In this document: positions 26,870 through 64,000 of the stretch, one piece after another
Position numbering within the stretch: position 1 is the first letter of the stretch
Layout of the letters: each line of letters begins with the position of its first letter
NCBI GenBank assembly: GCA_951406725.2
Contig: OX597839.1
Location: forward strand, 18,538,001 to 18,602,000
From: Octopus vulgaris
Lineage: Eukaryota
Direction of reading: 5' to 3'
Length of the DNA stretch: 64,000 bases
Notes under the pieces: model-generated
What the model saw: only the letters and a program-made list of their open reading frames with translations
Told to the model about the DNA's origin: nothing
Database searches by the model: none
Translations under genes and position numbers: made by a program

Positions 26870-27240
26870 ATTGAGTCAAGTACACCAACATCAAAAATCA
26901 ATGGAAATTGTAGTTGTGATACCCATGCCGGTGGCACATAAAAAGCACCATCTGAACGTGGCCGATGCCAACGCCGCCTTGACTGGCTTCCGTGCCGGTG
27001 GCATGTAAAAAGCACCAATCCGATCGTGGCCATTGGCAGCCTTGCCTGGCACCTGTGCTGGTGGCACGTAAAAAGCACCCACTACACTCACGGAGTAGTT
27101 GGCGTTAGGAAGGGCATCCAGCTGTAGAAACACTGCCAGATCAGACTGGAGCCTGGTGCAGCCTTCTGGCTTCCCAGATCCTCAGTCGAACTGTCCAACC
27201 CATGTTAGCATGGAGAACAGACGTTAAACGATGATGATGA
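26870..27240 (+). mobile_element. RTE-LINE 3' end repeat (family C, (GAT)n tail); many other copies in the window
   Basis: GTGCCGGTGGCACGTAAAAAGCACC repeats and ...GGACGTTAAACGATGATGAT-type end, shared with the 3' UTR of the LINE at 57565-58937. Confidence 0.85.
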
Positions 27241-27467: not shown

Positions 27468-28057
27468 CCCTTTAGCATTTAAACCATCCGTATCTTATTT
27501 TTTTATTGCCCACAAGGGGCTAAACAGAGGGGACAAACAAGGACAGACAAAGGGATAAAGTCAATTACATCGACCTCAGTGCGTAACTGGTACTTAATTT
27601 ATCGACCCCGAAAGGATGAAAGGCAAAGTCGACTTCGGCAGAATTTGAACTCAGAACGTAACGGCAAACGAAATACCGCTAAGCATTTCGCCCGGCATGC
27701 TAACGTTTCTGCCAGCTCGCCGCCTTCAAAACCATCCATATCTGGCTCAAATTATTCTGTTTTACATTCAAACTGACTAGATTCAGCCTCTCGTACCTAT
27801 CCTACAATGTCATTCTCAAAATGAATAGTCACATCATTGAAATCTTTCCCACCTGGACAGGTGTTCCCACTTCAATGCTTGCTTTAGGGACCCAACACAA
27901 TAAGCTACAGTTAATACAACTAAGATTGAAACATGCGACCAGCTTGCCGCTAGTCACAACACCAGCTGTTCAAGATTTCATGATAATGCGTGTTTAATTC
28001 AAAAGAATGTAAATAAATAGACATTACACTTGACAGAATAATCTGAATGCTAACGGG
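27468..28057. mobile_element. piggyBac-like MITE with a nested family B SINE (~27496-27728)
   Basis: TTAA|CCCTTTAGCATT ... AATGCTAACGGG|TTAA; SINE TSD aaaccatccRtatct at 27481-27495 and 27729-27743. Confidence 0.75.
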
Positions 28058-28116
28058 TTAAATGCTGTGAGATTCTTGCAAGCTTATGGAGGACCCGAAA
28101 CATAGGTTTTGCAGTT

Positions 28117-28406
28117 CTGTATTTAAGAGATGAAGAATTGTTTACATTATTTACATTTGACAGGTATTTGTCCACAGCTTGTGTATTGTTAACACAACAT
28201 TTCAGCTGATATATCCTCCAGCCTTCATCAGGTGTCTTGGGGAAATTTTAAACCTGGGTTCTCATTCCTAAGGTATTTTTCGATGTTATTATTATTATTA
28301 CTATTATTATTCAGGTCACTGCTTGGAATCGAACTCGGAATTTTGGGGTTAGTAGCCCGCGCTCTTAACCACTATGCCATATGCTCATGGGCATATGTAA
28401 ATAATG
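28117..28406 (-). mobile_element. tRNA-promoter-headed element carrying a hammerhead motif
   Basis: 14-bp direct repeat TAGGTTTTGCAGTT at 28103-28116 and 28407-28420; A box 28369-28379, B box 28325-28336; hammerhead motif 28192-28235. Confidence 0.7.
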
Positions 28407-29379
28407 TAGGTTTTGCAGTTGTATTTGTTTTGGAGCAGTGGAACCTTGACATGGTATTATCCCACTTAGGTACTTCTTAGGAGGCTTAGAAGAGAATACC
28501 TTTGAAAATTATATTGTTCGTTCCGTCTGGTCTCTGTGCCGGTGGCATGTAAAAAGTACCATTCGATCGTGGTCGTTTGCCAGCCTCGTCTGGCACCTGT
28601 GCCAGTGGCACGTAAAAAGCACCCACTACACTCACGGAGTGGTTGGCGTTAGGAAGGGCATCCAGCTGTAGAAACACTGCCAGATCAGACTGGGCCCGGT
28701 GCAGCCTTCTGGCTTCCCAGATCCCCGGTCGATCCGTCCAACCCATGCTAGCATGGAGAACGGATGTTAAATGATGATGATGATGATACTTGTTACTTCT
28801 TCAATCTTGAGAGTTATCTGCTAGTTTTTCTTTACCCACCTACACTCTTAGTTCTTCTGTTCCAGCACACTTTAACTTGAACTTTGAGGAACCACCTGGA
28901 CTCGAAGCCCCCTATTAATCATTCTCACTTTCTCTCTCTCCTAAAGGTGAATTACCATGTAGCTCATCTACAAGGACCTGTTTGCCCTTTACTCCTCCTT
29001 CTTCATATTTTATTTGCTTATATCCTTGAGATGGTATAAGCCCACTTAGGTACTATGCAGGAGTCTTAGGAGAGAACACCTTTGGAACTTATATTTTTTG
29101 CTATACCCTTGTCACTTCTTCATTCTTAAGAACTGCTATCAGTTAGTTTTTCTTTATACACCCACATTCCTAGTTCTTCTGTTCCATCACACTTTAGCTC
29201 AAATTCAAACTTTGATGAACCACCTGGACTTGAAGCTCCTACCAATAATTCTCTCTCTGTGTCTCTGCCTGTTGCTCTGTCTCACTCTCCCTCCTGAAGG
29301 TGAATTACCATGTAGCTTCTCTACTAGAACCTACTTGCCCCTTTCTCCTTCTCTTTCATATTTTATATCTGCTTATATA

Positions 29380-29781
29380 GGCGCAGGAGTGGCTGTGTGG
29401 TAAGTAGCTTGTTTACCAACCACATGGTTCCGGGTTCATTCCCACTGCGTGGCACCTTGGGCAAGTGTCTTCTACTATAGCCCCGGGCCGACCAAAGCCT
29501 TGTGAGTGGATTTGGTAGACGGAAACTGAAAGAAGCCCATCGTATATATGTATATATATGCATGTGTGTGTTTGTGTGTCTGTGTTTGTCCCCCTAGCAT
29601 TGCTTGACGACCGATGCTGGTGTGTTTATGTCCCCGTTACTTAGCGGTTCAGCAAAAGAGACCGATAGAATAAGTACTGGGCTTACAAAAGAATAAGTCC
29701 CGATGTCGAGTTGCTCGATTAAAGGCGGTGCTCCAGCATGGCTGCAGTCAAATGACTGAAACAAGTAAAAGAGTAAAAGAG
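29380..29781 (+). mobile_element. Full-length tRNA-SINE family A with internal (TA)n(TG)n; more than 12 other copies in the window
   Basis: A box TGGCTGTGTGG, B-box-like GGTTCATTCCC, ccttgggcaagtg core, tail GAAACAAGTAAAAGAGTAAAAGAG; near-identical copies at 2811-3217(-), 20715-21099(+), 40461-40892(+). Confidence 0.9.
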
Positions 29782-60330: not shown

Positions 60331-63300
60331 TGCTGGTATGGGCTGGACAGTTTGACAGGAGCTGACCAACTGAAGAGCTGCCCGGACTACATTTCTGTTC
60401 TGGCATGGGCTGGACAGTTTGACAGGAGCTGACCAACTGAAGAGCTGCCTGGAATCCATTTCTGTTCTGGCATGGGCTGGACAGTTTGACAGGAGTTGAC
60501 CAATTGAAGAGCTGCTCGGACTCCATTTCTGTTCTGGCATGGGCTGGACAGTTTGACAGGAGTTGACCAATTGAAGAGTTGCTCGGACTCCATTTCTGTT
60601 CTGGCATGGGCTGGACAGTTTGACAGGAGTTGACCAATTGAAGAGTTGCTCGGACTCCATTTCTGTTCTGGCATGGGCTGGACAGTTTGACAGAGTTGAC
60701 CAATTGAAGAGCTGCTCGGACTCCATTTCTGTTCTGGCATGGGCTGGACAGTTTGACAGGAGTTGACCAATTGAAGTGCTGCCCAGACTCCATTTCTGTT
60801 CTGGCATGGGCTGGACAGTTTGACAGGAGTTGACCAATTGAAGAGTTGCTCGGACTCCATTTCTGTTCTGGCATGGGCTGGACAGTTTGACAGGAGCTGA
60901 CCAACTGAAGAGCTGCCTGGAATCCATTTCTGTTCTGGCATGGGCTGGACAGTTTGACAGGAGTTGACCAATTGAAGAGCTGCCTGGAATCCATTTCTGT
61001 TCTGGCATGGGCTGGACAGTTTGACAGGAGCTGACCAACTGAAGAGCTGCCTGGAATCCATTTCTGTTCTGGCATGGGCTGGACAGTTTGACAGGAGTTG
61101 ACCAATTGAAGAGCTGCTCGGACTCCATTTCTGTTCTGGCATGGGCTGGACAGTTTGACAGGAGTTGACCAATTGAAGAGTTGCTCGGACTCCATTTCTG
61201 TTCTGGCATGGGCTGGACAGTTTGACAGGAGCTGACCAACTGAAGAGCTGCCTGGAATCCATTTCTGTTCTGGCATGGGCTGGACAGTTTGACAGGAGTT
61301 GACCAATTGAAGAGCTGCCTGGAATCCATTTCTGTTCTGGCATGGGCTGGACAGTTTGACAGGAGCTGACCAACTGAAGAGCTGCCCGGACTCCATTTCT
61401 GTTCTGGCATGGGCTGGACAGTTTGACAGGAGCTGACCAACTGAAGAGCTGCCTGGAATCCATTTCTGTTCTGGCATGGGCTGGACAGTTTGACAGGAGT
61501 TGACCAATTGAAGAGCTGCCTGGAATCCATTTCTGTTCTGGCATGGGCTGGACAGTTTGACAGGAGCTGACCAACTGAAGAGCTGCCCGGACTCCATTTC
61601 TGTTCTGGCATGGGCTGGACAGTTTGACAGGAGCTGACCAACTGAAGAGCTGCCTGGAATCCATTTCTGTTCTGGCATGGGCTGGACAGTTTGACAGGAG
61701 TTGACCAATTGAAGAGCTGCCCAGACTCCATTTCTGTTCTGGCATGGGCTGGACAGTTTGACAGGAGTTGACCAATTGAAGAGTTGCTCGGACTCCATTT
61801 CTGTTCTGGCATGGGCTGGACAGTTTGACAGGAGCTGACCAACTGAAGAGCTGCCTGGAATCCATTTCTGTTCTGGCATGGGCTGGACAGTTTGACAGGA
61901 GTTGACCAATTGAAGAGCTGCCCAGACTCCATTTCTGTTCTGGCATGGGCTGGACAGTTTGACAGGAGTTGACCAATTGAAGAGCTGCTCGGACTCCATT
62001 TCTGTTCTGGCATGGGCTGGACAGTTTGACAGGAGCTGACCAACTGAAGAGCTGCCTGGAATCCATTTCTGTTCTGGCATGGGCTGGACAGTTTGACAGG
62101 AGTTGACCAATTGAAGAGCTGCCCAGACTCCATTTCTGTTCTGGCATGGGCTGGACAGTTTGACAGGAGTTGACCAATTGAAGAGCTGCTCGGACTCCAT
62201 TTCTGTTCTGGCATGGGATGGACAGTTTGACAGGAGCTGACCAATTGAAGAGCTGCCTGGAATCCATTTCTGTTCTGACATGGGCTGGACAGTTTGACAG
62301 GAGCTGACCAATTGAAGAGCTGCCCAGACTACATTTCTGTTCTGGCATGGGCTGGACAGTTTGACAGGAGTTGACCAATTGAAGAGCTGCTCGGACTCCA
62401 TTTCTGTTCTGGCATGGGCTGGACAGTTTGACAGGAGCTGACCAACTGAAGAGCTGCCTGGAATCCATTTCTGTTCTGGCATGGGCTGGACAGTTTGACA
62501 GGAGCTGACCAACTGAAGAGCTGCCCGGACTCCATTTCTGTTCTGGCATGGGCTGGACAGTTTGACAGGAGCTGACCAACTGAAGAGCTGCCTGGAATCC
62601 ATTTCTGTTCTGGCATGGGCTGGACAGTTTGACAGGAGTTGACCAATTGAAGAGCTGCTCGGACTCCATTTCTGTTCTGGCATGGGCTGGACAGTTTGAC
62701 AGGAGTTGACCAATTGAAGAGCTGCTCGGACTCCATTTCTGTTCTGGCATGGGATGGACAGTTTGACAGGAGCTGACCAATTGAAGAGCTGCCTGGAATC
62801 CATTTCTGTTCTGACATGGGCTGGACAGTTTGACAGGAGCTGACCAATTGAAGAGCTGCCCAGACTACATTTCTGTTCTGGCATGGGCTGGACAGTTTGA
62901 CAGGAGTTGACCAATTGAAGAGCTGCTCGGACTCCATTTCTGTTCTGGCATGGGCTGGACAGTTTGACAGGAGCTGACCAACTGAAGAGCTGCCTGGAAT
63001 CCATTTCTGTTCTGGCATGGGCTGGACAGTTTGACAGGAGCTGACCAACTGAAGAGCTGCTCGGACTCCATTTCTGTTCTGGCATGGGCTGGACAGTTTG
63101 ACAGGAGCTGACCAACTGAAGAGCTGCCTGGAATCCATTTCTGTTCTGACATGGGCTGGACAGTTTGACAGGAGCTGACCAATTGAAGAGCTGCCCAGAC
63201 TACATTTCTGTTCTGGCATGGGCTGGACAGTTTGACAGGAGTTGACCAATTGAAGAGCTGCCTGGAATCCATTTCTGTTCTGGCATGGGCTGGACAGTTT

Positions 63301-64000
63301 GACAGGAGCTGACCAATTGAAGAGCTGCTCCGACTCCATTTCTGTTCTGGCATGGGCTGGACAGTTTGACAGGAGCTGACCAACTGAAGAGCTGCCTGGA
63401 ATCCATTTCTGTTCTGGCATGGGCTGGACAGTTTGACAGGAGTTGACCAATTGAAGAGCTGCTCCGACTCCATTTCTGTTCTGGCATGGGCTGGACAGTT
63501 TGACAGGAGCTGACCAACTGAAGAGCTGCCTGGAATCCATTTCTGTTCTGGCATGGGCTGGACAGTTTGACAGGAGCTGACCAATTGAAGAGCTGCCCAG
63601 ACTACATTTCTGTTCTGGCATGGGCTGGACAGTTTGACAGGAGCTGACCAACTGAAGAGCTGCTCTGGAATCCATTTCTGTTCTGGCATGGGCTGGACAG
63701 TTTGACAGGAGTTGACCAACTGAAGAGCTGCCCGGACTCCATTTCTGTTCTGGCATGGGCTGGACAGTTTGACAGGAGTTGACCAATTGAAGAGCTGCCC
63801 GGACTCCCTTTCTGTTCTGGCATGGGCTGGACAGTTTGACAGGAGCTGCCCGGACTCCATTTCTGTTCTGGCATGGGCTGGACAGTTTGACGAGTTGACC
63901 AATTGAAGAGCTGCCCGGACTCCCTTTCTGTTCTGGCATGGGCTGGACAGTTTGACAGGAGCTGCCCGGACTCCCTTTCTGTTCTGGCATGGGATGGACA
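60331..64000. repeat. 67-bp satellite, ~55 copies, running off the window end
   Basis: Unit CATTTCTGTTCTGGCATGGGCTGGACAGTTTGACAGGAGCTGACCAACTGAAGAGCTGCCTGGAATC. Confidence 0.97.

Follow-up and report, generated by a model that had tools for sequence, protein, structure and literature searches.

What kind of element is inserted at positions 28103–28420 of the window, the stretch of 64,000 nucleotides of Octopus vulgaris DNA which we have analysed? On the minus strand it has a tRNA-like head followed by a hammerhead. The usual view of SINEs is that they depend on LINEs and arose when a small-RNA head was fused to a LINE tail; this insertion has no poly(A), in agreement with an earlier note on this DNA, in which a LINE-type tail was reported as absent. 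That note saw in it a SINE-like Pol III unit of its own, moved by Penelope-type machinery. Our answer is different in part: the insertion is almost certainly a piece of a Penelope-like element (PLE), namely a solo pseudo-LTR (pLTR) of an autonomous element with a reverse transcriptase (RT) and, at its C-terminus, a GIY-YIG domain. We number the family from the first base of the tRNA-like region (+1 = window position 28386). The features of the insertion are the following:

28112–28393, minus strand: main arm of the solo pLTR, from –7 to the fixed 3' end of the family (profile match –7 to 277; copy L001)
28313–28386, minus strand: tRNA-derived head, from alignment to host tRNA genes; it gives no cloverleaf fold
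28369–28379, minus strand: A box, predicted Pol III promoter element, from the sequence; about 13 nt downstream of the dominant 5' boundary
28325–28336, minus strand: B box, predicted Pol III promoter element, from the sequence; aligns with the T-loop of host tRNAs
28285–28311, minus strand: (AAT)n spacer of variable length, from sequence and family comparison
28112–28265, minus strand: ORF start codon (28265–28263) and about the first 51 codons, from tandem copy L238 and homologue P0004
28192–28235, minus strand: type I hammerhead in the minimal form typical of PLEs, cut predicted at 28196/28195, from motif, fold and family comparison
28125–28180, minus strand: 3' stem-loop with A-rich loop, decayed here; predicted region of RT recognition and start, from the fold of copy L011 and by analogy with PMC11167929
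28112–28142, minus strand: "tail" between the two 3' end points of the family (about 252 and 277), from end clustering
28395–28408, plus strand: second, inverted arm of 14 nt, which ends at the upstream 3' end point (about 252–255)
28378–28397, no strand: short fold-back palindrome at the 5' junction, with the hairpin CATATGC/GCATATG, from the sequence
28407–28420, no strand: target-site duplication on the 5' side of the main arm, a 14-bp direct repeat
28103–28116, no strand: target-site duplication on the 3' side; 28112–28116 are also the element's own end

The hairpin, the A and B boxes, the (AAT)n and the hammerhead had all been correctly placed on the minus strand, and the inverted copy of 28143–28156 is indeed present at 28395–28408, with 14 nt. 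At this site Rfam detected no tRNA and no hammerhead, and a scan of the window with ARAGORN was negative for tRNAs; the head and the hammerhead are therefore identified by motif reading, alignment to host tRNAs and family comparison.

The size of the family was studied in a genome of 2.8 Gb in 227 contigs. A 290-nt query gave 4,622 first-look candidates, 40 of which were scored; the 29 other loci fetched with it have 86–93% identity. Such numbers speak against a chance arrangement. The 30 best copies all align from the head to the 3' part, both of which the query contained, and in most of them the 3' end is the same and has no tail. The five bases with which it closes are also those with which the "flanking" repeat opens. 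The 14-bp direct repeat is thus present but is not purely flank, since five of its bases (28112–28116) belong to the fixed 3' end of the family. Linkage also appears when loci are selected by the head: in 19 of 30 the hammerhead pattern lies no more than 400 nt away (the remaining 11 were not followed individually), as expected from the earlier note. A 24-mer just downstream of hammerhead stems II–III has 10,112 exact matches in the genome, with none for its reversed control, which suggests a family of roughly 35,000–58,000 arms if their identity is 93–95%.

The clean family head was compared with 13 host tRNA genes of six amino-acid types and has 38–49 of 72–74 bases identical to them. The best match is Arg-TCG, with z = 8.4 against shuffled sequences; a single parent tRNA was not accepted, as Arg-TCG is not distinct from Arg-TCT, Cys and Thr. 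Both the A and B boxes are intact in the majority of the family. Conservation among copies is 0.908 in the A box, 0.915 in the B box and 0.918 in the rest of the head, so that the boxes do not stand out from their surroundings, which counts against a role of Pol III or is neutral. In one locus (L326, C12:25267077–25270148) there are seven tRNA calls within 3 kb, mostly tRNA-Cys.

The hammerhead has a stem I of 4 bp, a bulged base after the core, a stem II of 5 bp and a palindromic stem III. These are the features of the minimal form described in PLEs (PMC4209133). It had been proposed that two C-to-T changes have spoiled the window copy. They correspond to CpG decay at 28204 and 28199: the form with both C has 2,195 exact copies in the genome, counted with a 31-mer with intact stems II–III (zero for a reversed-pattern control). 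One of the places affected is the pair which closes stem II, the other is the palindrome of stem III, so that the hammerhead of the window is likely to be impaired; the decayed sequence has a folding z-score of only –1.5.

Three of the first 30 loci ran past the head into a common upstream sequence. When this sequence was followed, it led to an element with one long ORF. The same tRNA-like head begins about 37 nt downstream of its stop codon (a stop inside the A box was rejected, as it is in the wrong frame), and the main-arm sequence is found in long copies both 3' of the ORF stop and 5' of the ORF body. In a set of 30 loci picked with the 5' part of the ORF, 18 were flagged as having the ORF body immediately after the pLTR 3' end. 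The 3' ends of the family are tail-less and in frame with the PLE ORF. In the natural tandem copy L238 the frame is open for 150 codons, from an ATG equivalent to window position 28265, through the hammerhead and into the ORF body; homologue P0004 has a similar N-terminus. We infer that the codons carried by the pLTR are translated only when the repeat lies upstream of a full-length copy. Four copies (L010, L012, L017 and L020) show length variants of 6, 9 or 18 nt near position 250, all of them frame-preserving; such variants are expected if source elements translate this coding stretch of their pLTR.

The protein is that of a PLE. RVT_1 is detected in two of nine natural frames, with E values of 1.4e-10 (above the cut-off) and 1.2e-6 (just below it); the RT profile also matches the RTs of group II introns and TERT. 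A natural C-terminal frame of 321 aa (P0001) has 55 homologues among longer proteins. For P0001 neither phmmer against the PDB nor Foldseek gave a significant match. The predicted C-terminal domain (model residues 211–300) aligns with the GIY-YIG domain of I-TevI over 85 residues (Z = 9.3, rmsd 2.7), followed by EndoII (6.7) and UvrC (6.3). P0001 also has a CCHH motif of two Cys and two His; both His are invariant in 39 sequences. Penelope/Poseidon elements have no Zn-finger-like linker between RT and EN, unlike Neptune and Nematis, and their EN is not N-terminal, unlike that of Naiad. The domain order found here excludes Naiad, and by eye there is no Cys cluster in the linker of P0001. Three near-identical long copies (L209–L211, at 7.9–9.05 Mb of C1) have the same flanking bases: they are probably a segmental duplication which includes a tandem full-length element.

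The unit is therefore moved by Penelope-type and not by LINE machinery, as the earlier note had supposed, since it is the pLTR of an element with RT and GIY-YIG. The comparison with the terminal repeat of an autonomous PLE, which the note had suggested for the 3' part, gave a match which is not confined to that part. The unit is not self-standing either: many copies extend upstream into the RT-GIY-YIG ORF. A comparison of 70 short arms with 67 ORF-linked arms shows that none of 246 columns differ at p<0.01; allele proportions are equal at 10 polymorphic pLTR sites and the median divergence is 6.0% in the short arms and 6.8% in the ORF-linked ones. It follows from the identity of alleles that short and coding copies have their sources in common.

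These data bear directly on the interpretation from which the work started, namely an independent lineage of tRNA-SINEs with a 3' part taken from a PLE and able to amplify itself. In a strict count, 52 of 63 head-bearing arms have no ORF; furthermore the solo copies, in which the 3' stem-loop is retained as well as the promoter boxes, could be secondary sources. However the whole unit, tRNA head included, lies inside the pLTR of an autonomous element, and the short copies have no private alleles, so that a stand-alone SINE with a borrowed Penelope tail is largely refuted and we give it hardly any credence. The tRNA-derived head with A and B boxes close to the 5' end is indeed what is found in SINEs. 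On the other hand, the short copies are not a distinct non-autonomous family with only its 3' end in common with a partner, nor do they end in a LINE-derived sequence or a simple repeat. Head-to-tail monomers with ends set by self-cleavage, as in retrozymes or Sm-alpha, are not found: none of the loci sampled contains a tandem array of monomers, and the arms are mostly head-to-head.

The ends of the arms give information on how the copies were made. In 289 unique arms from 190 loci the 3' ends cluster at 277 (83 arms) and at 252 (34 arms). Among 163 head-to-head junctions, 69 of 81 pairs have one 3' end of each kind (overlapping loci not removed). Direct repeats of 9–14 bp at the outer ends are present in 51 of 197 loci, compared with 0.5% of shuffled pairs; the target-site duplication proposed for the window insertion is based on its own repeat and on these family statistics. 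In Poseidon_Ac two internal RT start sites, a tail and priming on two strands have been described (PMC11167929), and an inverted partner arm has been drawn for PLEs (PMC8557442). The inverted 13-mer of the earlier note therefore fits a very short second arm, produced by priming on two strands at two end points. The 3' stem-loop, which is decayed in the window, folds with –12.2 kcal/mol in copy L011.

The hammerhead does not appear to fix the ends. Arms starting at 190–200, around the predicted cut, are 4 of 75, compared with 4 of 71 at 141–189. Four arms (L271, L295, L309 and L311) begin at 191–196, beside the predicted cut at 194 and also at a palindrome; given the small numbers and the palindrome at the same place, we did not accept copies starting at the hammerhead cut. 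The few arms near the cut are consistent with insertion without cleavage: for the element studied in vitro, cleavage is reported not to be needed (PMC11167929).

The distribution of 5' ends is quite different. The unbiased arm samples were all drawn from one stretch of contig C1, its first 112 Mb. Of 119 arms which extend as far as +4, 91 have their end at –18 to +4; a background of 0.004 per nt would place about 10 there. The commonest end is –7, which is 13–14 nt before the A box; in tRNA-derived SINEs the A box lies 10–15 nt from the 5' end (PMC8969392). Three partly overlapping samples gave 24 of 35, 15 of 19 and 24 of 29 ends at this boundary. Exact counts in the whole genome are 3,357 for the head (with three degenerate positions) and 696 for the sequence just upstream. 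This sharp boundary suggests an RNA made from the pLTR itself, and to this extent the Pol III SINE-like idea stands; only the independence of the SINE has to be abandoned.

The 91 boundary arms adjoin an inverted head (38), another inverted piece (27), plain flank (23) or a tandem piece (3). The 5' hairpin had been considered a part of the element. It is present in the window, but ORF-linked copies differ 5' of the short palindrome, so that it is a product of the junction. Several of the junctions with plain flank also retain a fold-back of a few bases.

The partners of long arms behave in another way. When an arm extends more than 300 nt into the ORF, its inverted partner passes the boundary in 10 of 14 cases, counted by hand after leaving out three ambiguous loci and one group of segmental duplicates (Fisher p = 5.5e-4 against 28 of 119). 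If ends at +6 and +7 are taken as stops, 6 partners stop and 10 pass (p = 0.0016). A strict recount at motif level has only five cases, of which 2 stop and 3 pass (p = 0.055). These figures replace those of an automated count (3 stop, 17 pass), which were too high because internal ORF pieces and a segmental duplicate had been included. The uninterrupted upstream pLTRs of tandem copies which reach the boundary also pass it, in three cases out of three (p = 0.013). Long-arm partners which run past the boundary point to a separate short template RNA. Since short arms stop at the boundary and the partners of long arms mostly pass it, the simplest reading is that there are two pools of templates.

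We may thus describe a possible course of events. By analogy with PMC11167929, the protein of the element would nick both strands of the target and prime reverse transcription at two points within the RNA (about 277 and 252). The result would be one long arm, a second arm in inverted orientation and a tail on one side only. One pool of templates would consist of long read-through RNAs, probably made by Pol II, and would give the copies with an ORF. The other one would be an abundant short RNA which starts near –6 and gives SINE-like copies such as that of the window; both pools are our own proposal. In the window insertion one arm would have been copied up to the 5' end of the RNA and folded back by a few bases, while the other one stopped after 14 nt. 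The hammerhead, for which cutting is predicted in the dimer only, would simply travel with the pLTR and would not determine where copies end. The insertion belongs to an abundant autonomous PLE whose pLTR starts with a tRNA-derived A/B box, and we consider it probable that this solo pLTR was copied from a short Pol III RNA. That the tRNA-type promoter of the pLTR launches a SINE-like RNA through Pol III we judge, from the sequence data, somewhat more credible than the contrary. The chances are about even for the complete scheme, in which a single PLE with a working Pol III promoter in its pLTR has both a coding RNA and a built-in SINE-like RNA, the latter responsible for the majority of its insertions, which number tens of thousands.

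The RNA-seq data (three runs from one study) show a deep cover of the pLTR, with equal depth in both mate orientations, in libraries of unspecified strandedness. There is no pile-up of read starts or ends at the pLTR in these runs. Between 78 and 79% of the pLTR reads run into other sequence, and few reads cover the ORF start. Passive transcription of scattered copies would give such a pattern. On the sense strand, over about 2.5 kb, shared runs of four T are absent, compared with 4.1 in base shuffles (p = 0.014) and 2.5 in shuffles of synonymous codons (p = 0.052); this deficit is weak, but compatible with Pol III reading the whole element.

Other explanations of the boundary have to be weighed against a short Pol III RNA. 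An ordinary PLE might use a Pol II start at the edge of the pLTR, the head being an old captured SINE head or tRNA which marks or assists the promoter; the short copies would then arise as by-products, when the full-length mRNA is primed at its 5' pLTR. Penelope of D. virilis has an internal, LINE-like promoter in its pLTR (PMC2377424), and the pLTRs of rotifer PLEs, which have no tRNA heads, have defined 5' ends and set lengths, with palindromes at the 5' side (PMC3846280). Because headless PLEs have such ends and promoters, a comparable peak would be expected if it were Pol II that started there. Furthermore no allele separates short from long copies, and four of the 14 long-arm partners do stop at the boundary. 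However full-length copies should then start there, which is not the case for any of the three uninterrupted upstream pLTRs that reach it, and the A and B boxes, both intact in most of the family, lie at a SINE-like distance from the boundary. We consider this explanation unlikely. The boundary could also be an RT stall or self-priming at the small palindrome of a long RNA, with no separate short RNA. An inverted head is found beside 38 of the 91 boundary arms, and self-priming at palindromes has been proposed for rotifer PLEs (PMC3846280), but no long inverted head is present beside the other 53. The palindrome has –5.4 kcal/mol and is weaker than stem II of the hammerhead (–8.1 kcal/mol), one of the stronger downstream hairpins, which gives no such peak; moreover, arms which are likely to share a long template mostly pass the boundary. 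An origin of this kind appears highly improbable.

Transcription by Pol III might instead begin in the upstream pLTR and run through the entire element with its ORF, the short copies being primed at the first pLTR. The deficit of T runs would fit, as well as the position of the ORF start codon, downstream of the A and B boxes. Nevertheless the deficit is weak, and the search for other PLE families, intended as a control for T runs and for tRNA heads, gave the same family in 30 of 30 loci. Tandem copies reach upstream of the boundary, which also speaks against it. Pol III RNAs are uncapped and are translated poorly. For autonomous elements a need for Pol II has been argued (PMC10886601). We find transcription of the whole element by Pol III very doubtful, and retain the short Pol III RNA, besides a long coding RNA, as the preferred reading.

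Several parts of the insertion are familiar. The hammerhead, the inverted 13–14-mer, the 5' hairpin and the 14-bp repeat are all published signatures of Penelope elements. Poseidon_Ac of Anolis (PMC11167929) and Pen2/Pen2a of Adineta (PMC3846280) are alike in having RT with a C-terminal GIY-YIG and partial tandems which form pLTRs. They also have an ORF start in the pLTR which overlaps the hammerhead, two 3' end points with a tail in between, an inverted partner truncated at its 5' side, duplications of 8–14 bp, palindromes at the inverted junctions and ends which are not visibly set by hammerhead cleavage. The difference is in the promoter: the sections available of these papers describe TATA/Inr-like or LINE-like internal promoters and mention no tRNA-derived A/B box in the pLTRs.

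A Pol III promoter together with a hammerhead is already known from Sm-alpha: in Sm-alpha and Sj-alpha of Schistosoma a Pol III-type promoter is followed by a hammerhead in a short repeat, as reviewed in PMC6765202. These are described there as non-coding, often in tandem and released by self-cleavage, whereas the octopus unit is the pLTR of a coding element, has a minimal hammerhead and is inserted as inverted arms. Cassandra, Helenus and Ajax (TRIMp3) also carry a Pol III promoter derived from a small RNA inside a terminal repeat (PMC10886601). According to the same source, they are non-autonomous LTR elements with repeats unlike those of their helpers; the octopus boxes are in the autonomous PLE's own repeat. 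The metazoan non-LTR retrozymes are short repeats with type I hammerheads, for which mobilisation by PLEs has been put forward as a proposal (PMC7229834, PMC7761336), but they are described as tandem, with canonical hammerheads and circular RNA, while the octopus unit shares the PLE sequence itself. With tRNA-derived SINEs it has in common the A and B boxes close to the 5' end, a short length, a high copy number and target duplications (PMC8969392); unlike them it has no LINE tail and no lineage of its own, and every part of it is contained in its autonomous partner.

What is unusual here is a tRNA-derived A/B box in the pLTR of a PLE. We have found none in the literature as covered by titles and the first part of abstracts, a coverage which leaves out most subscription journals and the repeat libraries. 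Short non-autonomous Penelope elements are mentioned in butterflies, in a text which, in the part available, does not give their structure (PMC6685494). A 2026 annotation of octopus repeats includes 190 Penelope-like families, and neither ribozymes nor hammerheads are mentioned in the text and supplement as available (PMC13282606). The octopus family unites in one element the promoter boxes, a ribozyme, the RT start sites and the ORF which mobilises them, and the genome keeps a large record of the points where cDNA synthesis stopped. It is also a warning that what is called a tRNA-headed "SINE" in a genome of this kind can be the end of a PLE. If Pol III is really used, there would be a direct route from PLE to SINE and a simple system in which to test PLE transcription: the short copies would be a SINE in the making, moved by Penelope and not by LINE proteins. 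If Pol II starts there, the PLE would be an ordinary one in which a tRNA-like relic has been captured.

On both sides of the insertion there are other interspersed repeats, at 29381–29740, 27560–27720, 26900–27240 and 28524–28790 of the window; they presumably resemble octopus SINEs. The repeat at 29381 has a tRNA-like head; its alignment with the head of our family (score 37.5) is about as good as that of host tRNAs. At 28853–28960 and 29170–29310 two stretches of about 150 nt resemble each other; they are separated by about 320 nt and may be either an old local duplication or two copies of another repeat. Further away, at 60333–63848, there is a tandem array with a repeat of 67 bp, 52.5 copies and 94% matches, which continues with a variant period of 116 bp (63725–64000).
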